Shown one piece after another: positions 9,747 to 55,761 of a stretch of 64,000 nucleotides of DNA (positions are counted from its first letter, which is position 1; every line of letters begins with the position of its first letter). Below the pieces are notes generated by a model. The model saw only the letters and a program-made list of their open reading frames with translations, made no database searches and was not told the DNA's origin. This stretch comes from Clostridia bacterium. GTDB taxonomy: Bacteria > Bacillota > Clostridia > Oscillospirales > CAG-272. Position numbers and translations under genes: made by a program. Location of the stretch: contig JAFTLK010000013.1 in the NCBI GenBank assembly GCA_017455975.1, positions 13,362 to 77,361 of the forward strand, read 5' to 3'.

Positions 9747-10370
9747 ATGCTGTATCACAATCTGATCTGGGACTTTGACGGAACGCTGTTTGACAGCTAT
9801 CCGCACATACAAGGGGCGTATCTGCAGGCACTTGCCGACTTTGGTCGGACGGCAGACCCCGACATTCTGATGGCGAAGCTGAAGATCAACTTCGGCGAGG
9901 CACACAAGTACATCGAGCCGTCGGACGAGCTGCGTGCACGGTTCACGCAGTATGAGCATGATATCGACTTTGCACCAAAAGCTGTCCTGTACGACGGCAT
10001 GAAGGAACTGCTCGCGGATACCCGTGCGGCTGGTGTGCGGCATTTTCTGTTCACGCACCGCAACAACCTTGCGCTGACGTACATGGAACGCGCGGGGATT
10101 CTCGGCTATTTTGATGGCTGGGTGACCTCCGACGATAAAGAACACTTTGCGCTCAAGCCCTCGCCTGCGTCCATTTTGTATCTGCTGGAGCACTACGGCA
10201 TCGACCCGCACGACTGCGCCATGATCGGCGACCGTGAGATCGATGTCGGTTCGGGCATTGCCGCGGGAACGAACGGGATTCTGTTTGATGAGTTTCATAA
10301 TCTCGGGGAGACCAAGGCACAGCACCGGGTGTATTCGGTGGAGGAGATGCGGGGGTTGTTGTTAAAATAA
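9747..10370 (+). CDS. HAD-superfamily phosphatase
   Basis: 207 aa. Motif I is LIWDFDGTLFDS; motif IV-like is MIGDREIDVGSGIAAG. Confidence 0.75.
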   Translation: MLYHNLIWDFDGTLFDSYPHIQGAYLQALADFGRTADPDILMAKLKINFGEAHKYIEPSDELRARFTQYEHDIDFAPKAVLYDGMKELLADTRAAGVRHFLFTHRNNLALTYMERAGILGYFDGWVTSDDKEHFALKPSPASILYLLEHYGIDPHDCAMIGDREIDVGSGIAAGTNGILFDEFHNLGETKAQHRVYSVEEMRGLLLK

Positions 10371-10375
10371 AAATA

Positions 10376-10416
10376 AACGGTACTGTTATCCTTACGGATG
10401 CAGTACCGTTTTTGTT
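10376..10416 (+). terminator. rho-independent terminator of the ROK-SIS-AT3-HAD operon
   Basis: Stem AACGGTACTG (10376-10385) / CAGTACCGTT (10401-10410) followed by TTTT. Confidence 0.75.
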
Positions 10417-10431
10417 GATTTGTAAAGATGT

Positions 10432-11059
10432 TATGTTGTTTTCACTCACGCGTGAATTGCAACTTGAGTATTTATGTACTCAATATCACGCTTGACGCTG
10501 GCAATCCACACTCACGCGTGAATTGCAACATACGAAACGGAATATTTGGGCGATAAAACAGGTACTGGCAATCCACACTCACGCGTGAATTGCAACCATC
10601 TCGTCAAGCAATTCGAGTGCATTTTTGTTGCTGGCAATCCACACTCACGCGTGAATTGCAACTTGTACATAATCATATAACTGATTATTAGCATAACTGG
10701 CAATCCACACTCACGCGTGAATTGCAACACGATCTCCGTGCATCACAGGGCAGCGACGAGTGCTGGCAATCCACACTCACGCGTGAATTGCAACGGCCGG
10801 AAGATGTGTTATAATGATAACAACCACCTGGCAATCCACACTCACGCGTGAATTGCAACAGCAAAGACCGCTAAAAAGACGGTTGAGGAGGTACTGGCAA
10901 TCCACACTCACGCGTGAATTGCAACAGCACACATTCAATATATTGTCAACATTGTTTGATCTGGCAATCCACACTCACGCGTGAATTGCAACTTTACCAC
11001 GGGCGCGGTTCGAGATATGCACGATGGCTGGCAATCCACACTCACGCGTGAATTGCAAC
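10432..11059 (-). CRISPR. CRISPR array: 9 identical 32-nt repeats plus 1 degenerate terminal repeat, 9 unique spacers of 33-35 nt
   Basis: Repeat on the + strand is CTGGCAATCCACACTCACGCGTGAATTGCAAC. Copies start at 10498, 10565, 10631, 10697, 10763, 10828, 10894, 10961 and 11028. The degenerate copy at 10432-10463 keeps only ...TCACTCACGCGTGAATTGCAAC. Within each repeat GCAAT can pair with ATTGC, and there is a TCAcgcgTGA core. The minus-strand orientation is inferred (see findings). Confidence 0.95.
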
Positions 11060-11307
11060 CGTGATACTGCGTTACAATTACGCTTATTTGGTTGTGTGGA
11101 GGCTCCGGTACTGCGATCCTTCTTTATTCCGATTGGAAAATCCCATCAAAAATACTACTGAAATCGGTTCCCGCGCCGTTTACTGTCGATATTCGATAAA
11201 ACGGATACCATATTGACAGTCGGGAGATGCCTGCTCCCGTTTTGCGATTGGAATTTTTCGTGCGAAAGGGTTGGTATTTTTCTGTGTACTTACGGTTCGC
11301 GCAGAAG
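11060..11307 (-). ncRNA. putative tracrRNA / leader region containing an anti-repeat (11071-11108)
   Basis: The + strand reads GTTACAATTACGC (11071-11083)...GTGTGGA (11094-11100) GGCTCCGG. This is a diverged inverted copy of the repeat, 11 nt from the last repeat. Extra hairpins at 11222-11238 and 11182-11192/11210-11220. No ORF. RNA ends are unknown. Confidence 0.45.
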
Positions 11308-12795
11308 TTACGCGACACCGAAACTGGATAAATGCGTTTTGTTTTCGCTCTTCAGGCGAGCAATTTCCATATCATGGAGTTGTTTGAATCGTTCGTAGGT
11401 TTGTTCGCAAAGGGTCTGATCCGGGGATTTTAAGTCGGTGCCTGCGTTCATCAGGAGAAATGCTGCATAAAGGTCGCGCTGAACGGTATCACCGTTTTCG
11501 AGATGTGTTGTTCTTTGACTGAGTTTTTTCTTGTGGTATTGCTTGCTGAGGTGGTCATACTGACTTGCTTTATATTCCCATTTGTCAACCTTATGAAGTC
11601 CTTCCATGCCGCTATTTTTTAACTTGGATTCCAAAATCAAAATCAAGGTGGCAGGCGCTTTGTTTGCAAGGGATTTTCCAAACCGTTTTTTGCGGTTGTA
11701 GCGTCCTTTTGCATTGACTGTGGTTTCTTTGGCGCGTTTCTGCAGGGCTTTGTATTCCATGGGTTCCACATAGATTTCGTTACCCATCTGCAGAATCTCA
11801 TTTGCCAATTCGTAATGCTGCAATTTTCGGATGTCCGCATTTTTGCGCTGTAATTGACGAACCTGCGCGGCGTACCGTTTGTAGTGATTGGAATACGTCC
11901 ATCGCAGTTTGATGCCTCGTTTGATGGTGCCGTCAGCATTGTAATTGTCGGGGTTGGTGCTTCTGCGGCTGGCATCCATTTTTCTCTGCAGATACAGCAT
12001 CCGCTTATGGTTGGTATTGACGCGGTCTGCAAGTTCATAGAGATGTACGCCGCGATCAGATACAATTGCAATACTTTGCGTACCGATGTCAATGCCGACA
12101 CGTCCTTCTTTGACCGTGTGTTTTTTCTTTACAACAGAATTGCCTGCTAAAGTGATCTGTAGATAGTATTTATATCTTGTTTTTACCCATTTTCTGACAA
12201 CACGATAATATTTGTGTTCCAATGAGAGCATTTCGCGTTCATAATCGGTTTGGGGATATGCAACTTTAATCGTTATATTGATAGGGTTCTTGCATTGCCC
12301 GCCGTTCCATGATAAGAGGTGTTCTTTATAGGACATCGAAGTCCCTGCTTTTTGATTGGCAAGGCTATCTAATGTACCGCGACGCTTAAAATGTACACTG
12401 TTTCCGTTTCCGAACAAATACTTATCAAAAGCGCGCCATACATCAGATGCGGTACGGTGGGCAATGTGGGTAGCGATATGTGCAACGAAGTGCTTCTGCA
12501 TTGTTGTAATATCATCTTTGAACGCAAATTCTGAAAAATGATTATCACGCAAAAGTTTGGTGCGTTTGTTATACAGCGGTTTGCGTTTATCTTTTGGAGT
12601 ATCCTGAATTAACTTATCAAGTTCGCGGTATTCCGGCGTTTGCTGTAGCCTGCGCAATTTCTTCAATTCAAAAGAAACGAGAGAATTGTACAGATGCTCC
12701 ATGATTTTGAAGCGTTTTTCAAGAATGTGTTCCTGCCACGGTTCTGTCAGCAAAGGAAGTGTCAGCACTGAACGGGGACCTTCTGATTTTGCCAT
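11308..12795 (-). CDS. TnpB/Cas12-like RuvC RNA-guided nuclease candidate (495 aa), CRISPR-adjacent
   Basis: AAAGGAGAG RBS 7 nt before the ATG at 12795 (MAKSEGPRSVLTLPLLTEPWQEHILEKRF...). RuvC-I is GRVGIDIGTQS (D236), RuvC-II is EIYVEPMEY (E344), RuvC-III is TVQRDLYAAFLL (D441). TnpB-like N-terminus. The track ORF (523 aa) starts further upstream, but that extension has no RBS. Confidence 0.7.
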   Translation of the reverse strand: MAKSEGPRSVLTLPLLTEPWQEHILEKRFKIMEHLYNSLVSFELKKLRRLQQTPEYRELDKLIQDTPKDKRKPLYNKRTKLLRDNHFSEFAFKDDITTMQKHFVAHIATHIAHRTASDVWRAFDKYLFGNGNSVHFKRRGTLDSLANQKAGTSMSYKEHLLSWNGGQCKNPINITIKVAYPQTDYEREMLSLEHKYYRVVRKWVKTRYKYYLQITLAGNSVVKKKHTVKEGRVGIDIGTQSIAIVSDRGVHLYELADRVNTNHKRMLYLQRKMDASRRSTNPDNYNADGTIKRGIKLRWTYSNHYKRYAAQVRQLQRKNADIRKLQHYELANEILQMGNEIYVEPMEYKALQKRAKETTVNAKGRYNRKKRFGKSLANKAPATLILILESKLKNSGMEGLHKVDKWEYKASQYDHLSKQYHKKKLSQRTTHLENGDTVQRDLYAAFLLMNAGTDLKSPDQTLCEQTYERFKQLHDMEIARLKSENKTHLSSFGVA

Positions 12796-12828
12796 CAATA
12801 TCTCTCCTTTCATTAAATATCTATGCTT

Positions 12829-12857
12829 ATTATAGCACGTTATGTAATGAATGTCAA
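12829..12857 (-). promoter_or_regulatory. sigma-70-type promoter of the nuclease gene
   Basis: On the minus strand: TTGACA (12857-12852), 17 nt, TATAAT (12834-12829). Exact consensus, about 27-nt 5' UTR. Confidence 0.7.
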
Positions 12858-12895
12858 GAAAAAGAACTGCCGAAAACATAACTGACGGCAGCTCT
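12858..12895 (-). terminator. rho-independent terminator of the cysteine desulfurase gene
   Basis: Stem AGAGCTGCCG / CGGCAGTTCT (12895-12886 / 12872-12863, one mismatch). It is followed on the minus strand by a TTTTT tract that runs into the -35 box of the nuclease promoter. Confidence 0.65.
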
Positions 12896-12916
12896 TCAAA
12901 TCAATGTTCGTTTTTC

Positions 12917-14101
12917 TCACCGCTTCATTCTCGCAAGCATCTTTATCCCCGTTTTCAGGGCATCGCAGAGGGCGGTGAGCTCCTCCTCGGTGTTGTCTGC
13001 GCACAGGCTGATGCGCAGCGTGGTGTCGGCCTCCGCCTCGGAAAGTCCGAAGCACAGAAGCGCACTCGAAATGCGTCCGCTCTGCGCCGAACATGCGGAG
13101 CCGGAGGAGACAGCAATGCCTTTTCCGGACAGGAAGTTCAGCATCGTTTCGCTCTTGATCTTCGGCATACGCAGGGAGACAATGTGCGGGGCGCGCGCCT
13201 CGGACTGCGGCACATTGACGGCAATGCCGGACAGCGCGGATTCTTCGGCGAGCATCGCGGGCAGACGGTCACGCAGTGCGGTCATGTGTGCGATGTCCGC
13301 ATCCATGGAGGCAGCCCCCTCGGCCGCCGCCGCACCGAAACCGGCGATTCCGGGCAGATTTTCGGTTCCCGAACGGAAGCCGCCCTCCTGTCCGCCGCCG
13401 AAAATGATCGGGGAGACCGCGCGGCGCTTGCACATGTACGGCGAGACGTACAGCGCACCGACGCCCTTCGGACCGTGGATCTTATGCGCCGAAACGGTGA
13501 CAAGATCCGCGCCGAGCGAGGTCGGAGTAAAGGGGATCTTCAGATACCCCTGCACCGCATCGGTATGCACGATGCAGTCGGGATTGACGGATTTTGCATA
13601 ATCGGAAATGGCGCGGATGTCATTGACGGCACCCGTTTCGTTGTTGACGAGCATGACTGTGACAAGGAACGTATCGCGCGTCATTTCGCGGCGGAACTGT
13701 TCCATGTCAAACACGCCGTGTTTTGTCGGAATATAAGCCGCACGGAAGCCCTCCGCCTCCAGTGCTTCCACGGTGCGCAGAACGGCGGGGTGCTCCGAAT
13801 CCGAGGTGATGATCTTGCCGCCGGCAAGCGCCCGTTTGGCATGGGCCGTGCCGGTAATGGCGAGGTTGTCGGCCTCTGTACCCGATGCGGTAAAGATCAG
13901 ATTTTCATCCTTTCCGCCGCGGATGCCGAGGGAGGAGAGTACCTGCTCGCGGGCACGCTTCAATACTGCATGTGCGGCAGTGCCCATTGTATGGCGCGAG
14001 GAGGGATTGCCCCAGATCTCGTCCATGACGGAAAGCATCGCCGCTCTTGCCGCAGGGCACAGGGCGGTCGTTGCGCTGTTGTCAAAATAAACGGTCTGCA
14101 T
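12917..14101 (-). CDS. nifS: cysteine desulfurase (class V aminotransferase, NifS/IscS-like)
   Basis: 394 aa. MQTVYFDNSATT N-terminus, PLP-lysine motif SAHKIHGPKGVGALY, C-terminal SSGSACS active-site Cys loop. Confidence 0.85.
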   Translation of the reverse strand: MQTVYFDNSATTALCPAARAAMLSVMDEIWGNPSSRHTMGTAAHAVLKRAREQVLSSLGIRGGKDENLIFTASGTEADNLAITGTAHAKRALAGGKIITSDSEHPAVLRTVEALEAEGFRAAYIPTKHGVFDMEQFRREMTRDTFLVTVMLVNNETGAVNDIRAISDYAKSVNPDCIVHTDAVQGYLKIPFTPTSLGADLVTVSAHKIHGPKGVGALYVSPYMCKRRAVSPIIFGGGQEGGFRSGTENLPGIAGFGAAAAEGAASMDADIAHMTALRDRLPAMLAEESALSGIAVNVPQSEARAPHIVSLRMPKIKSETMLNFLSGKGIAVSSGSACSAQSGRISSALLCFGLSEAEADTTLRISLCADNTEEELTALCDALKTGIKMLARMKR

Positions 14102-35586: not shown

Positions 35587-35632
35587 CCTACTTTTTCTTG
35601 AAAGCCCTACTTTTTCTTGAAAGAAAAAGTAG

Positions 35633-35882
35633 GCAAAAAGAACTTTTTTCGTCGGATATTTATTGGCTGGATTGTCATGTTATACCACGAAACAAGTTGA
35701 TATTCTGCACTTCACCAGAAACAAAGCAAAAAGAACTTTTTTCGTCGGCTTTTTCTTGATTTTATTTTCGCGTTTTCCCACGAAACAGGTTGATATTCTG
35801 CATTTTACCAAAAAACAGGCAAAAAGAACTTTTTTCGTCGGGTATTTCTTGATTATATTTTCACGTTTTCCCACGAAACAGG
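35633..35882. repeat. 93-bp tandem repeat, about 2.7 copies
   Basis: GCAAAAAGAACTTTTTTCGTCGG starts at 35633, 35726 and 35819. Units share ...CCACGAAACA(A/G)GTTGATATTCTGCA... . The third copy is truncated. Confidence 0.85.
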
Positions 35883-50079: not shown

Positions 50080-53000
50080 TCAGACGACGGGAACGGTCAC
50101 GATGACGCTGCTGCCGTAGCTGACGTAGGTGGGGATCGGCCAGATCACGCGGGCACCGGCGGGCGCCTGGGATCTGATTTCGGATGCCGGAATGACGGCA
50201 TAGCCGGCTTTGGTCTGGACACGGGTGATGACCACGGTGTCAAGCTTTCTGCCGAACAGGTTCATGTAGACAACACGGAGGGTTGCGACACGGCCGATCT
50301 GAACGGTGACGGTTTCGCTCTCGCCGCAGGCGACGATCGCGTCGGTGACGCTGTCAGCATCGACAAACGCATATCTTGCGGGCATGGAAGCCGCGCCGAG
50401 GATGTCGGATGCGGAGAAGGTCATATCGGTGCCTGTGACGCCGTTTGCCGTGAGCGAACCGGAGGAGATCACGCGGCCGGTGTAGTCGACGAAGCGGACA
50501 TTCAGTTCAGCGTCTGCGTAGGTGATGACGGGTTCTTCGGGAACGCCTGCGATGGAGGAGAGGACATTCTCGATGTCTGCCTGCGTCAGCGGAACAAACG
50601 CCGCGTTCGGGTCGTCACAGATCTTCAGGTCGGTGACGGAGAGGAGGCCTTTGGTGACACGAATAATGACATCATATTCCTTTGCATCCGTTGCTGTTCC
50701 GTCAGCGTTTGTCAGCTTGTCAGCGATCTTGTAGAACATATCAACAGACGTAGACAGGCTTGCGGGAGCAACTGGGGTGCCATCAACGGTCAGTTCGAAT
50801 TCCGCAGAACCGATCGGGGATTTCAGACCGAGCTGCATGACACGGTTGGTCTTGACTTTGAATGTCAATGTCTGACCGGGGTAGAGATACAGTTCGTTCT
50901 TGGGGCCGTTTTTCAGAAGATCAGCGGCTGTATTGTCGTCCAGTTCTGTGTTTTCATCCAGAAGAACAGCGGATGTCTGACTCTGTCCTTCGACAGTAGA
51001 AATCGCTTTGTAAACCTGTTCAGAGGTTGCACCGCTGACACCAACAGCGCTCAGAACCATATCGCGAATCTGGTAGAAACTGGGATTATCTTCCAGATCT
51101 TCTACATAAATGCTGCTGTCTTTGATGGTGTTGATGATACGGACACCGTCGATCTGAATCGGGTTGTTCGTTTCATTACTTGCCGATCTCTTGATCGTAA
51201 CGGTATAAGTACCGTAGGGAAGAGCCTTTTCGGAAATGAACGGCAGGCTGTAATAGGTACCGGACTGCTGACTTGTAGCATCAGTCGTGCCTGTGCTCAG
51301 TTTGGTGTCGATCATGTAGATCTTATTCACCTTTTCGGCGTTATCTGCATTCGCCTGGCTCAATACGGAGACAATACCGGTAGAACCGTTGCTGTTGCCG
51401 TAGAGTTCGAAGCCTGTACCGGTGAAGGTAAAGGATGCGGTTGCGCCTGCGGTTGTGGTGTATGCATAGGTTCCGTTGGAACCGATGGCATCATTCTCTT
51501 GGGTATACGCAAAATCATAACCGTAGTTGCCATTCTTTCCACCGAGTACAGCGGTTGTCTGCGTCTTGGTGGGAGCGGTGGTATGACCTTTCCAACTGCC
51601 TTCGTATTGGAGGAACGATTCTTCGTAGTAGACAGTGGTGGCGGGAGTTATACCGACATTAGTTGTTGATGTTGTACCTGCAACGGTCAAGGTAATTGAA
51701 AGGACATCCAGATTCTGTAAAATCTTTGTCGGAACATAAGTGAATGTTTTAGTAGTAGAATTATAACTGACAGTACCATAACGTGCGGAGTGATTACCGA
51801 CATTATCGACAGTACCAGTATTAGTTACAATATCACTCAGCTTAAATGTAACCGGCAGGCCAAAGTCAACAACAAGATTCGGTTTGAGAATTTGAGTGTT
51901 GATATTATAATACAGATAAAGTATTGTTTTATCTTCGGAAATGACCGAACCCGTGTAGGAGTAAAGTTCGCTTGAATACTTACCTACAGCTTCGGGGACT
52001 TTGGTTAAGTCGGTCTGGAATTTATCTGTCTGTCCATAAAAATTCGTGATGCCACAACCAGATACATTGATACGGCCAGCATTTCCGGAGAACGCAGAAG
52101 GTGTAGGTGTAATATTTTCAAATGTTACATTGTCAGCGACCTGAATTGAATATGTGTAGAGTTCATCGCCGAACTTTTCATCATAATATACAACAGAAAG
52201 TGAATCCTGTTTTTCAACAGCCTTAACATAAATTCGAACAAGAATAGCTTCCTTATTCTCATCCCACATCAGGTTATCATAAGGATCTTCAGAACTCGGA
52301 TTTTTTGCATTATTATATATTGTAACTTCTCTTGTATAATCACCTTCCCAGACGGTTTTTTCATTTCTATCCCAAGTGAGATTTGTGACATTAACGCCCG
52401 AAGTGGAACTTTGCATGGTAGCAGTAACACTACCGGTCTCTGCAGTAACCTTATAAATGTCGAACTCTTCGAGACCGCTGAATTTATATGTACCGATACC
52501 TCTGCCGTCTGACCAATAACCAAATACGAGTGTTTTATCTTTAAGATTGGCAGCCGTAGTATCAACCGGGTTTGTAGTACCACTTTCATAAACAATTTGA
52601 ATTGAGATGGAACAATAGTTATTTACATCCATCCAATCCGAATTGGGGGTATTATCTCCTTTTTTACCCCAGTCTGCTGCATTAATATGTAATTCTGTTG
52701 TAAGATTTTCGTTCTTAATATCAACAATTTCCATATAGTATGCAACTAACTGCATACGGCTTCTTTCTGCATATGTTGTATTGTTGCTACTGTCAACATA
52801 TTTTGCTGATACTGTACTGGTATCAACCAATACCCAATCTGTATTTGAAAGAACTTGCCAATTGCCATTCCAATAACGGATTTTTTGTACAAGAGTACCG
52901 CTATTAGTATCGTCATCACCAGGGCCGTTTGTTTGATGTTCAGTTGCACTAGAGGAATCATTTTCTTTCAGAACATCCAGAAGCCTAACCTGCCAGTATT

Positions 53001-55761
53001 CGATACTACGTTCATTACGAATAATCGTAGAGGGGATAAGGTCAGAGAAAGCAATACCGTTTTCAGTATGTACATCCTGTGCCTTTATTTCGAGATTGTT
53101 TAACGTTGTATTGGGATCTGTGACTTGTTGGTTAGTAATCCAATACTCAACCGTCAACGGAGCAACACTGCTCAAATTTTCTTCTGTTTCTGTAACAGTT
53201 ACAGTATACTCTTTTACCGTAGCCGGAGTAATAGCAAGGGTTGTATCTTCAACAATATAGAATTTGTTGTTTGCATTGAAGCTTTTAACAGTAACACTTG
53301 TATCTTTTTCGGATACAGGACGGGTTTCTGTCTTAATCGGTGTATCGTTGCCTGTTACAACATATTTGATTGTAATCGTAACAGCCTTTTCAAGTGCATT
53401 CTTTGCAGTTTCAAGAGCATTAACTGCGGCTTTCAGCTCATTAAGTGCTGTATTTGCAGCAGTTTCGCTGGTATACGAAGCACCCTCAACGGTGGTGAAC
53501 TTATTTTCCGCAGCTTTCAGCGCGGATTCATATGCAGTCCAACTTGCATCTGTGTAGTTGTCATTTTCAACAGTCAAAGCTGCGATGCGGCTTTCTTGCA
53601 GGGAGGCATCAACTGTATATGTAGAGGTTCCGGGGGTATATTCATACAAGATAACACTTTGAGAAGAAGAGTTACTTCCTCCCCAAACGCCGTCGTCTTT
53701 TTTATATACTACATAAGTGTAATTTGCGTAGATAGTATATGCGTTATTACTGGAGCTAATAGTTAAATCTATCGCATCTTCTGATAAGGATAAATTGTAT
53801 TTGCGGGGGTAAGTGCTCGTTCTGTTGGGGTAAAGATAATATCCATTGTTGGATAAATATCGGTAGGTAGTAAAAACAGATCTTGAACTTGAATATGTCC
53901 ATAGACTATCTTGTACATCTGAAGCAGGAATTGCCTTAGTTCCATTTATATCGACGTTTGTACTGGAAATGGAACCATTATTGTTTGTTATAGCGACACC
54001 TTGAGTATCATTTAGTTTATAAACAATTAAATATTGGCTATTATTTGTTAATGAGGATGCTGTATATTGGTCGTAACTATCAGGAGTTCCACCGTTAGTC
54101 GAAATACTATCTTTTAATTCCTCAGCTGCCGTCTCCAATTCATAAAGACCACCAACGGAGAAGTGCGGCATGACAAATTCATACATGCCGTTGGCAACAT
54201 TACCGATAATCGTTTCGATGGTGTTGTCAGCATTGACAACAAATGCGCGTACCTTTGCGGTGTCCCAACCCTCGGGAATGGGAAGTGCTACGGTTGCTTC
54301 ACCGGTGTACTTACCATTTGCCGTTGCGGGTGTCAGATCCCATGCTTTGACATTCTTTGCGCCATCAATCGCAGTGGGAGCGGACGTCTCGGTTACCGTG
54401 ATCGCGGTCAGACCGGGAGCAGTGACAGAAATACCGTTATCGGTCAGAGTAACATTTTCCGGTTCTTCGGGCGTAACGGGAACATCGGGTTCTTCCGGAT
54501 CAACAACGTTGATCGTGCCGTCGGCATTGAAGCCGCCTGCAACGATGGAATCTACTTCGTAGTCATTGGAATCCTGCATGCGGGCAGCAATGACACGCAT
54601 GATGGGACGGATGTATTTTGCTACTTCGGTTTCCGTTTCTGCACCGGGATAGTCAGCCCAGACACAGAAAACAGAACCTGCAGGGTCTGATACTGTGCTG
54701 CCCATAAAAGCAGTATTGGAGAAACCCTCTGCAGCAGTGTGATATCCGTCAGCATGTGTTGTACCGGTTCCGGGAGTAAATGTATCATTTACGCCAAGAA
54801 TATAATAATAATCACCATTGGTGTTGTACATGGGGTGACCGAGTCCGGCCATGGTCGAGGCGGATGCGGACTTATATGCAGTTGAACCGGAACCCCAACC
54901 GGAAGACCAGAACGAAATCAGGATGTCCTTATCAAACGCATACGATGTATTGTTTTGGAAGTAAATACCGTCATTGAACGCCATGGTTTTCATACCGGCT
55001 GCTTTGATGATGGTGTTCAGTTCATTGACATAATCAACGAACAGCGGGTACTTTCCGCTGGAAAGCAGATGACCAAAGCCCATGGAGCCGCTGCTATAAT
55101 TATCATTTGCGTATTCGTCTGCGCCGATATTGAAAATCGAACAGCCCTTGTTCGCAAAATAAGAAATATACTTCTGCAGCAGTTCTTTCATGAATGCGAC
55201 CGCAGTGGAGTCGTCCAGATCGATCGTGCTTGCAGAGCCGTTATAACCCGGTGTCATGCCCAGAGAGGTCATAGCAGTGATCATCGTATACATATGACCG
55301 GGGTTATTGAACAACGGGATAATTTCGATGCCTGTTGTATTGGCATGCGCAATGATCTCATCCATTTCACTTTGGGTGAGTTCATTCAGTTCGGTTGTAT
55401 AAGTCTTTTTTGCATTATACGCAATATTGCCGTTATGTACCGCTGCGGTGACATCTGCATCGGAGTAAGAACCGACTGTCATATCATCCAGCAGGAAGCG
55501 CAGACCGTCATTACCGAACGCGAGCTGCAGATGTGTAAATCCGGCAGCCTTCATTTCGGTAATCAGCGCCTTGATCCAATCCACGGTATAATACTTACGT
55601 CCGCAGTCCAGATGCAGGATGCGTTGAAAGTCGTTGTCAACGGCTGTCGTTTGTACATCGGCAGTACCCGCCGTGTCATCCGCGAAAACCGTCATCGGTA
55701 CGATGCTGAACATCATGCACAGTACCATGAACATTGCCAGGGTTCGCTTTAGCATTTTCAT
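50080..55761 (-). CDS. 1893-aa secreted multidomain GH20 beta-N-acetylhexosaminidase / lacto-N-biosidase-like protein
   Basis: Signal peptide MKMLKRTLAMFMVLCMMFSIVPMTVFA. GH20 blocks ILHLDCGRKYY, IPLFNNPGHM and FNIGADEY. Long Ser/Thr/Asn/Tyr-rich C-terminal domains. No sortase motif seen. Confidence 0.8.
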   Translation of the reverse strand: MKMLKRTLAMFMVLCMMFSIVPMTVFADDTAGTADVQTTAVDNDFQRILHLDCGRKYYTVDWIKALITEMKAAGFTHLQLAFGNDGLRFLLDDMTVGSYSDADVTAAVHNGNIAYNAKKTYTTELNELTQSEMDEIIAHANTTGIEIIPLFNNPGHMYTMITAMTSLGMTPGYNGSASTIDLDDSTAVAFMKELLQKYISYFANKGCSIFNIGADEYANDNYSSGSMGFGHLLSSGKYPLFVDYVNELNTIIKAAGMKTMAFNDGIYFQNNTSYAFDKDILISFWSSGWGSGSTAYKSASASTMAGLGHPMYNTNGDYYYILGVNDTFTPGTGTTHADGYHTAAEGFSNTAFMGSTVSDPAGSVFCVWADYPGAETETEVAKYIRPIMRVIAARMQDSNDYEVDSIVAGGFNADGTINVVDPEEPDVPVTPEEPENVTLTDNGISVTAPGLTAITVTETSAPTAIDGAKNVKAWDLTPATANGKYTGEATVALPIPEGWDTAKVRAFVVNADNTIETIIGNVANGMYEFVMPHFSVGGLYELETAAEELKDSISTNGGTPDSYDQYTASSLTNNSQYLIVYKLNDTQGVAITNNNGSISSTNVDINGTKAIPASDVQDSLWTYSSSRSVFTTYRYLSNNGYYLYPNRTSTYPRKYNLSLSEDAIDLTISSSNNAYTIYANYTYVVYKKDDGVWGGSNSSSQSVILYEYTPGTSTYTVDASLQESRIAALTVENDNYTDASWTAYESALKAAENKFTTVEGASYTSETAANTALNELKAAVNALETAKNALEKAVTITIKYVVTGNDTPIKTETRPVSEKDTSVTVKSFNANNKFYIVEDTTLAITPATVKEYTVTVTETEENLSSVAPLTVEYWITNQQVTDPNTTLNNLEIKAQDVHTENGIAFSDLIPSTIIRNERSIEYWQVRLLDVLKENDSSSATEHQTNGPGDDDTNSGTLVQKIRYWNGNWQVLSNTDWVLVDTSTVSAKYVDSSNNTTYAERSRMQLVAYYMEIVDIKNENLTTELHINAADWGKKGDNTPNSDWMDVNNYCSISIQIVYESGTTNPVDTTAANLKDKTLVFGYWSDGRGIGTYKFSGLEEFDIYKVTAETGSVTATMQSSTSGVNVTNLTWDRNEKTVWEGDYTREVTIYNNAKNPSSEDPYDNLMWDENKEAILVRIYVKAVEKQDSLSVVYYDEKFGDELYTYSIQVADNVTFENITPTPSAFSGNAGRINVSGCGITNFYGQTDKFQTDLTKVPEAVGKYSSELYSYTGSVISEDKTILYLYYNINTQILKPNLVVDFGLPVTFKLSDIVTNTGTVDNVGNHSARYGTVSYNSTTKTFTYVPTKILQNLDVLSITLTVAGTTSTTNVGITPATTVYYEESFLQYEGSWKGHTTAPTKTQTTAVLGGKNGNYGYDFAYTQENDAIGSNGTYAYTTTAGATASFTFTGTGFELYGNSNGSTGIVSVLSQANADNAEKVNKIYMIDTKLSTGTTDATSQQSGTYYSLPFISEKALPYGTYTVTIKRSASNETNNPIQIDGVRIINTIKDSSIYVEDLEDNPSFYQIRDMVLSAVGVSGATSEQVYKAISTVEGQSQTSAVLLDENTELDDNTAADLLKNGPKNELYLYPGQTLTFKVKTNRVMQLGLKSPIGSAEFELTVDGTPVAPASLSTSVDMFYKIADKLTNADGTATDAKEYDVIIRVTKGLLSVTDLKICDDPNAAFVPLTQADIENVLSSIAGVPEEPVITYADAELNVRFVDYTGRVISSGSLTANGVTGTDMTFSASDILGAASMPARYAFVDADSVTDAIVACGESETVTVQIGRVATLRVVYMNLFGRKLDTVVITRVQTKAGYAVIPASEIRSQAPAGARVIWPIPTYVSYGSSVIVTVPVV

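Follow-up and report, generated by a model that had tools for sequence, protein, structure and literature searches.

What becomes of a TnpB-like nuclease that has kept its catalytic residues and lost every cysteine of its zinc ribbon, and how did such a protein come to lie beside a CRISPR (clustered, regularly interspaced and short palindromic repeats) array? These questions are raised by a gene in a 64,000-nucleotide (nt) stretch of DNA, hereafter the window, which corresponds to positions 13,362 to 77,361 of contig JAFTLK010000013.1 in the Clostridia bacterium assembly GCA_017455975.1 (Oscillospirales; CAG-272). The gene encodes a nuclease of 495 amino acids (aa) and is followed on the same strand by a short repeat array. 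We consider it probable that the protein is a CRISPR-associated descendant of the TnpB of an IS200/IS605 insertion sequence (IS), namely an effector resembling those of TranC or type V-U systems, and that the cysteines were lost before the array was captured. The gene, its catalytic codons and the segment in question, which corresponds to the target-nucleic-acid-binding (TNB) domain of TnpB, are located as follows (window positions).

11308..12795, minus strand: gene for a 495-aa TnpB-family RuvC nuclease (open reading frame; NCBIfam and PADLOC matches; AlphaFold2 model; VIA-align)
12088..12090, minus strand: codon of RuvC-I Asp236 (GIDIG), at least 90% conserved
11764..11766, minus strand: codon of RuvC-II Glu344 (YVEPM), at least 90% conserved
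11473..11475, minus strand: codon of RuvC-III Asp441 (QRDLY), Asp in 131 of 139 sequences
11476..11571, minus strand: TNB segment, residues 409-440, the zinc-ribbon position without Cys (alignments, AlphaFold2 strands, fold of the domain alone)

The cysteine-free segment and its predicted fold

Translation of the open reading frame (ORF) gives 495 aa with two cysteines, C168 and C463. The start codon at 12795 (MAKSEGP) is common to the homologues in the alignment; a longer ORF reaching up to 12879 lacks alignment support. The split RuvC D-E-D triad, which an earlier note on this DNA had reported as kept, is confirmed: in an alignment of 139 sequences, conservation is 90% or higher at D236, E344 and D441 alike.

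Standard domain models recognize the protein poorly. Pfam returned nothing, with no TnpB domain (OrfB_IS605 or OrfB_Zn_ribbon) even at E 1, and phmmer found no match for the 495-aa protein among the PDB chains. The NCBIfam model guided_TnpB (NF040570) matches residues 22-449 with E 1.1e-17 and 64.5 bits (cut-off 100), and the PADLOC models Cas12u4 (E 9.9e-12) and Cas12f (E 1.4e-10) match the RuvC half only (residues 228-453). In a profile search of the PDB, the best match was RdCas12n (PDB 9j09), with E 0.017 for a profile of 25 sequences and 1.4e-8 for one of 139, followed by an AI-designed nuclease and then by LaTranC (E 0.0025).

The earlier note had further read the segment between RuvC-II and RuvC-III as free of cysteines, with a SQ...R...RD spacing that mirrors the TnpB pattern, and both readings are borne out. 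Residues 409-441 are KASQYDHLSKQYHKKKLSQRTTHLENGDTVQRD, with zero Cys. When the family profile is aligned to RdCas12n, SQ, R428, G435 and RD441 fall on the SQ..C..C..R..C..CG..RD of that protein. In ISDra2 TnpB, the TNB comprises residues 327-359, coordinates zinc via C331, C334, C351 and C354 and is followed by D361, as given in an excerpt of PMC10097598. These cysteines lie 30, 27, 10 and 7 residues before the RuvC-III Asp; the same distances counted from D441 end within residues 411-434. Because the RdCas12n profile alignment and the ISDra2 spacing both point to the same stretch, the register of the ribbon is correct. The segment is about as long as the 33-aa TNB of ISDra2, and its alignment to RdCas12n contains a single 2-residue gap, at the first knuckle. 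With the length about unchanged, the cysteines were therefore substituted and not deleted, as had been proposed. A zinc ribbon elsewhere in the protein could be ruled out, as its only two cysteines are 295 residues apart.

Judged from the sequences of the relatives, the absence of cysteines is not a matter of chance. Across the columns of residues 405-441, a CxxC occurs in none of the 139 aligned relatives (111 have no Cys, 22 have one and six have two). A regular-expression search of 270 retrieved proteins detected a QRD-type motif in 240, none of which has a CxxC in the preceding 45 residues; the remaining 30, among them several fragments, gave no match to the motif. OrfB_Zn_ribbon or another TnpB Pfam domain was found at E 0.01 in none of 25 close relatives. 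Instead, the relatives have a replacement motif in common, [KR]ASQ[YF][DN]H..Y.KK.L.R...G..QRD. Its conservation within the 139 sequences amounts to 132 for A410, 130 each for S411, Q412 and H415, 110 for Y420, 129 for R428 and 97 for G435, and the positions Y/F413, D/N414, K422, K423, L425, Q439, R440 and D441 are conserved as well. For each of eight of these residues (A410, S411, Q412, H415, R428, Q439, R440 and D441), conservation reaches 90% or more.

The 139 relatives also served to build an AlphaFold2 model, which has a predicted local distance difference test score (pLDDT) of 95.5 and a predicted template modelling score (pTM) of 0.89. Residues 401-440 (pLDDT 95-97) are modelled as two hairpins, 413-414/419-420 and 429-431/437-439, ahead of the RuvC-III helix, and in the model this arrangement is the layout of a zinc ribbon. 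Foldseek returned ISFba1 TnpB as the best PDB match of the full model. VIA-align ranked ISDra2 TnpB first (Z 22.9, root-mean-square deviation (rmsd) 3.0 Å, 327 of 341 chain residues aligned), followed by ISFba1 TnpB (Z 20.8), with the Cas12f entries at ~13-18 and LaTranC at 15.6. As 14 ISDra2 residues are left unaligned, most of its 33-residue TNB must superpose. By its predicted fold, the protein is thus a TnpB, nearer to the transposon TnpBs than to any solved Cas12. When residues 398-447 (50 aa) were folded alone with 67 sequences, the strands were unchanged at a pLDDT of 76. The best match of this domain among 350,542 PDB chains was again ISDra2 TnpB (41 columns, 2.2 Å, 34% identity, Foldseek probability 0.92), with ISFba1 TnpB second (44 columns, rmsd 2.1 Å) and AsCas12f and Fanzor2 lower. 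The description of the domain as structurally distinct, which the earlier note had offered, does not agree with these models, in which the two-hairpin ribbon is kept and which match the TNB of ISDra2 and that of ISFba1 best.

Taking alignments and models together, the segment is almost certainly a substituted, zinc-free version of the ribbon. It is probably held by conserved aromatic and aliphatic residues instead of zinc, for which Y/F413, H415, Y420, L425, the mostly aromatic position 429, L/I432 and V/I438 are candidates. The domain could also have been re-ligated, with a metal bound via His, Asp or Glu in place of Cys: D414, H415, H421, H431 and E433 are all present in the segment, H415 is among its best conserved residues, and position 414 is nearly always Asp or Asn. 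However, H415 is alone as a conserved good ligand, 414 is Asn in 51 of the 139 sequences, and 421, 431 and 433 vary freely. The columns at the third and fourth Cys of RdCas12n are occupied by Leu/Ile/Val and by Asn or a gap. With nothing but H415 and D/N414 kept, a four-ligand metal site is not conserved, and the zinc independence that had been claimed holds to that extent, whereas in this particular protein a non-Cys metal site may be present. Since H415 is the sole conserved good ligand, such a site is unlikely for the family as a whole, and we regard re-ligation as quite improbable.

Transposon relatives and the CRISPR-linked clade

The Cys-less segment belongs to a large family. In a word-indexed protein search, 4675 of 8000 scored proteins had E ≤0.001. 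The 120 best share 53-100% identity with the query, are nearly all ~490-510 aa long (a few are shorter or longer) and, where named, are called 'transposase [Clostridia bacterium]'. An exhaustive search of 50%-identity cluster representatives gave 2261 clusters at E 0.001 and 622 at 1e-30, and a scan of one genome per species gave at least 552 relatives. From the latter, 80 loci were taken for a census of the surroundings by tblastn and a k-mer repeat test, complemented by a Pfam search of 79 ORFs that neighbour the gene at 30 loci. All but one of the 80 loci carry a Bacillota label. The sole non-Bacillota record, labelled Flavobacteriaceae bacterium CP2B, is placed by the tree described below among Bacillus and Lysinibacillus, which points to assembly contamination or a recent transfer. 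Plasmids carry the family too: relatives of ~40% identity lie on 140 plasmid records (98 of Bacillus and 19 of Clostridium, among them large plasmids of C. botulinum), mostly under the annotation 'hypothetical protein'.

An IS200-type Y1_Tnp gene (PF01797, TnpA) lies directly upstream on the same strand at 30 of the 80 loci, and a CRISPR-like array starts 191-311 nt past the stop codon at 18, in addition to the window. The two never occur together, and 32 loci have neither (including L007, which is cut by a contig end). Given the TnpA gene upstream at 30 of 80 loci, the relatives are IS200/IS605 elements. Three loci of one genome (L030, L032 and L034) are identical IS copies that have 533 nt upstream and 169 nt downstream in common; this shared stretch has TTAC at its start and GAGTTTCAG at its end, and the flanks are unrelated. 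IS608 inserts 3' of TTAC, which by analogy suggests a TTAC-type transposon-associated motif for the transposon sisters of the CRISPR clade. A further copy with TnpA and TnpB (L024:1357-4978) sits inside a GerA spore-germination gene, with the N- and C-terminal parts of that gene on either side. From such sequence evidence, the TnpA-linked forms are real mobile elements. Both these and the solo relatives, at 31-47% identity, carry the same Cys-less motif.

Because the D-E-D site of RuvC is intact, the protein is most likely an active nuclease. As an alternative, loss of the ribbon could stand for loss of the nuclease, leaving RNA-guided DNA binding only, as in Cas12m or the TldR repressors. Excerpts of PMC10691335 and PMC13565253 describe TnpB/Cas12 lineages that became so, and a score under the cut-off of the curated TnpB model would suit such a protein. 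In those lineages, however, it is the RuvC site and not the finger that decays, according to the same excerpt of PMC10691335, and here D236, E344 and D441 are conserved family-wide. Moreover, the TnpA-linked relatives are multi-copy mobile elements, in which cleavage by TnpB is expected. We consider a binding-only protein very improbable, and retain the reading of an active nuclease.

The history of the array was approached with a FastTree phylogeny of 76 sequences, from which ORFs <430 aa were dropped (L023, L028, L061, L075 and L079). The 18 array-bearing rows, including the window, all fall in one 20-row clade (support 99), its other members being L007, which is truncated, and L035, which has no array. 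The sister of this clade (support 99) has 17 rows, 16 of them with TnpA. Wherever the tree gives a family label for an array-bearing relative, it is Oscillospiraceae. Since every row of the tree is Cys-less and the array clade is nested in the family, the simplest reading appears to be that loss of the cysteines took place within the transposon family and that the capture of an array by one lineage came later. On that reading, the Cys-less TNB characterizes the family and is no adaptation of this effector. The proposal that the Cys-less form marks a separate clade thus needs to be widened: it does mark a clade, but this is a whole Bacillota family of IS200/IS605 TnpBs in which the CRISPR form is one nested branch. 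The Cys-less segment is common to the relatives; arrays are present at 18 of 80 loci, in addition to the window. What the earlier note had named as refuting its reading, a Cys-less form that is common among TnpBs and already catalogued, has come true in part. It is barely credible that the domain is a structural novelty that came about together with a separate small Cas12 clade and is its hallmark, as the earlier note had it: the array-linked members are all Cys-less and form one clade, and no PDB entry is close in sequence (RdCas12n being the best, by profile), but the same motif occurs in the TnpA-linked and solo relatives, the predicted fold is the usual one, and finger loss in TnpB has already been described.

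One locus within the array clade stands apart. L035:5512-5800, from Clostridiales bacterium GWF2_38_85, is the sole complete member without an array; downstream of its gene are scaffold blocks and a single repeat-like unit (GTTGCAATACACGC...). It may be an intermediate with one guide that links the IS form to the CRISPR form.

Array, scaffold RNA and spacer matches

The nuclease gene of the window is followed on the minus strand by the elements below.

11060..11307, minus strand: 248-nt stretch from the stop codon to the first repeat; conserved, structured scaffold resembling trans-activating CRISPR RNAs (tracrRNAs)
10443..11059, minus strand: CRISPR array of nine identical 32-nt repeats, nine 33-35-nt spacers and a truncated 21-nt terminal repeat
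11094..11102, minus strand: anti-repeat (CCTCCACAC) pairing with GTGTGG of the repeat (covariation)
11071..11079, minus strand: candidate for a second anti-repeat (AATTGTAAC), facing the repeat's 5' part (by eye; single-sequence minimum-free-energy fold)

The array repeat has no further occurrence in the genome of the window. Blocks of the scaffold are conserved across 19 array loci and include a GGGA...TCCC hairpin and a CTGTC/GACAG stem. RNAalifold on nine loci predicted 38 pairs, 21 of them with a compensatory change; the single-sequence fold of scaffold plus repeat has a z-score of -1.27, which alone is not significant. A search of the scaffold against Rfam, including the RAGATH-18-type TnpB RNAs, gave none at E 1 except a spurious miRNA row. 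A plain inverted-repeat scan of 10300-13000 gave no convincing anti-repeat; it was found later by comparison of the loci. Of its six pairs (CCACAC with GTGTGG), four have changed on both sides among the nine loci, and 86.5% of the cells are paired. Two tested helices jointly have 89.7% of the cells paired, a share that drops to 23-47% once the partner is slid.

Matching blocks lie past the stop codon of the IS relatives, followed by a hairpin and GAGTTTCAG at the right end of the element; the repeats of the window have ATTGCCAG at their 3' end, directly ahead of the spacer. On sequence grounds, the scaffold shares homology with the region of the right-end RNA in the related IS elements, and the repeat seems to correspond to the last helix of the transposon right-end RNA, as its 3' half. 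By analogy, the arrangement resembles the 'RNA splitting' route described for TranC systems.

The proposed mechanism can thus be outlined. The gene product would descend from an IS200/IS605 TnpB of a large Bacillota family and now be CRISPR-associated. Its four zinc-binding TNB cysteines would have been replaced family-wide by [KR]ASQ[YF][DN]H, Y.KK.L.R and G..QRD, with the length of the TNB and the two-hairpin ribbon shape presumably retained without zinc. With its intact D-E-D RuvC site, the protein would most likely act as an active RNA-guided DNA nuclease. Its guide would consist of two parts, a scaffold RNA of ~250 nt from between gene and array, derived from the transposon right-end RNA, and a CRISPR RNA (crRNA) whose repeat would provide the 3' half of the last scaffold helix, with the guide directly after it.

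In the window TnpA is absent, the gene is a single copy in a genome that is 94% complete, and it is flanked by housekeeping genes. The neighbours are metabolic: one flank has a gene for a HAD hydrolase, the opposite flank a gene resembling that of a cysteine desulfurase. Adaptation genes are absent from the locus, and the sole Cas1 of the genome is on a different contig (G000:C39:903-1775).

Hints of activity come from public sequencing runs. Parts of the locus are present in 20 of them, from 12 studies and mostly labelled as gut, feces or ruminant metagenomes; all runs were available as contigs, and four of the 20 were compared with the locus in detail. In two RNA libraries of one study, contigs cover 11030-11502 and 11033-11583, stretches in which the 3' gene end, the scaffold and the first repeat lie. 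Spacer matches that continue into non-repeat sequence occur on three contigs, namely for spacer 1 (10993-11027, with two differences), spacer 8 (10530-10562) and spacer 3 (10856-10893, in one RNA run and one DNA run). In the sense of the spacer, the letters just 5' of the matches end in TTTC, TTC and TGT. The flanks of the three spacer-matching contigs were not found in viral contigs. Three metagenome-contig matches to a 20-nt flank part were dismissed as chance, with an agreement of only 6-13/38 with the spacer. Across 401 genomes of the family, spacer 4 gave the best match (28/33), but as this falls on the beginning of an HPr kinase gene, it was also taken as chance.

Two runs concern the array itself. 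Run X18, an RNA library of another study, contains the same repeat and array trailer with different spacers; strains therefore differ in spacer content, although the locus is without cas1/cas2. In run X1, a 3370-nt DNA contig joins 10496 to 11027 within the repeat and skips eight of the nine spacers, which reflects either a collapsed assembly or a strain whose array is minimal.

Several points weigh against the reading of the locus as a CRISPR-associated TnpB descendant with a zinc-free ribbon. That zinc is not needed is a claim drawn from sequence and predicted models, and AlphaFold may have copied the ribbon from distant zinc-bearing relatives in its training set. The matches of the domain folded alone have E values of 0.23 and 0.27, weak as expected for 50 residues, at a pLDDT of only 76, and the segment of this protein does contain the possible non-Cys metal ligands listed above. 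The score of 64.5 bits is under the cut-off of the curated TnpB model. The order of events is read from a FastTree phylogeny with Shimodaira-Hasegawa-like support and midpoint rooting. As for the guide RNA, contigs from RNA libraries indicate presence, and neither transcription nor RNA ends nor strand can be read from them; since all runs were contigs, library depth and uncovered parts do not count towards a level of expression. The third protospacer-like match is preceded by TGT and not by TTC, and none of the three spacer-match targets was recognised as phage or plasmid. The array of the window (in a near and a distant search mode) and those of L010 and L006 gave no match in a phage collection, and 25-nt parts of spacers 4 and 6 gave none in viral contigs.

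Elsewhere in the window, a 93-nt unit is repeated 2.7 times with 85% matches at 35633-35882; ahead of it, at 35587-35623, is a 19-nt unit in 1.9 copies. The guanine-cytosine content of 52001-54000 is 0.385, against 0.51-0.59 in the remaining window, and this stretch may be acquired DNA.

Comparison with known systems

ISDra2 TnpB of the IS200/IS605 group (PDB 8exa, 8h1j) is the best structural match of the window protein. Both have the same WED/REC/RuvC/TNB layout and D-E-D site, with a TNB of ~33 aa inserted ahead of the RuvC-III helix, and ISDra2 TnpB lies beside a Y1 TnpA, as do array-less relatives of the window protein. They differ in that ISDra2 TnpB has 408 aa and four zinc cysteines, whereas the window protein has 495 aa, ~13% identity to it, a CRISPR array and no TnpA.

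RdCas12n (type V-U4), named as a Cas12n in a bioRxiv passage and in the title of its PDB entry, is the nearest solved protein by profile, and is a miniature, tracrRNA-dependent effector. Unlike the window protein, it keeps the CxxC...CxxC; only the RuvC half aligns by sequence, and the structural Z of 11.8 applies to the N-terminal part. Cas12n proteins have actinobacterial hosts and a purine-rich protospacer-adjacent motif (PAM). The Cas12f proteins (AsCas12f, OsCas12f, Un1Cas12f1) are of similar size and have a TnpB-derived fold, but with Z ~13-18 they are no closer than TnpB. In the passages available on Cas12f, the TNB has a CxxC...CxxC and is joined by an extra zinc-finger domain, and a bioRxiv passage describes Cas12f as working as a dimer. 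Full-length similarity and a CxxC...CxxC TNB would be expected of a member of Cas12n (V-U4) or Cas12f, and by sequence the window protein has neither.

The locus looks like a TranC or type V-U system. The concept of TranC is said to originate from Jin et al. (Cell, 2025). As described in available excerpts, TranC systems combine a TnpB-like nuclease with a short array, have no cas1/cas2, and use a tracrRNA and a crRNA that come from a split right-end RNA. Those of clade 3 (e.g. OsTranC3) are ISDra2-like, occur in Oscillospiraceae and have 32- or 36-bp repeats, 3-20 repeats per array and a TTC/TTTN PAM (bioRxiv 10.64898/2026.03.27.714800, in part). The window, compared with this clade by description only, has 32-nt repeats, nine of them plus a truncated one, and TTC at two of three matches, and in these features it agrees well with the clade. 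LaTranC (PDB 9jfo/9jfq) is distant at the profile E and Z values given above and 16-17% identity, and membership of its clade was ruled out by this distance.

It is also conceivable, though we hold it to be unlikely, that the array clade represents an independent, so far uncatalogued capture of an IS605 TnpB and a new TranC or type V subtype, which, along with hundreds of mobile relatives, would show TNB zinc to be dispensable for RNA-guided DNA cleavage, a conserved aromatic/His core (ASQ[YF][DN]H...Y...L...) taking over its structural role. If true, miniature editors could be modelled on a natural template that needs no metal. The excerpts of published accounts of TranC and TnpB that were available hold no statement that this family or any TranC clade lacks the finger. 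Among the listed papers on zinc-finger loss in TnpB/Cas12, as far as titles and the openings of abstracts go, there is no description of the family.

Under the preferred reading of a TnpB family that lost its cysteines before the CRISPR capture, the locus is of interest in three ways. The main survey of these proteins (Altae-Tran et al., PNAS 2023), in the part available, calls the role of the TNB zinc finger in TnpB/Cas12 unclear, and a family that keeps the triad, mobility and, in one branch, an array without the four cysteines amounts to a natural experiment; it suggests that the zinc site is structural and replaceable. The transposon-to-CRISPR transition is clearly visible, as a single tree contains both mobile sisters and cousins with arrays. 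Finally, the family is missed by Pfam and scores under the NCBI TnpB cut-off, and its members go by labels such as 'transposase' or 'hypothetical protein'.

The same survey, in its available passages, reports large TnpB branches without a zinc finger (its supporting Fig. S3D plots the fraction without the four-Cys motif) and catalogues 40 Cas12-U groups. In one of its branches, RIIIr-4, the loss of the finger goes with a relocated RuvC-III residue, whereas RuvC-III of the window protein is canonical (QRD). As both finger loss and TranC-type intermediates have already been published, the locus is a useful example and not a surprise; what it adds to the known systems is a clean series from transposon to CRISPR in a poorly annotated family.

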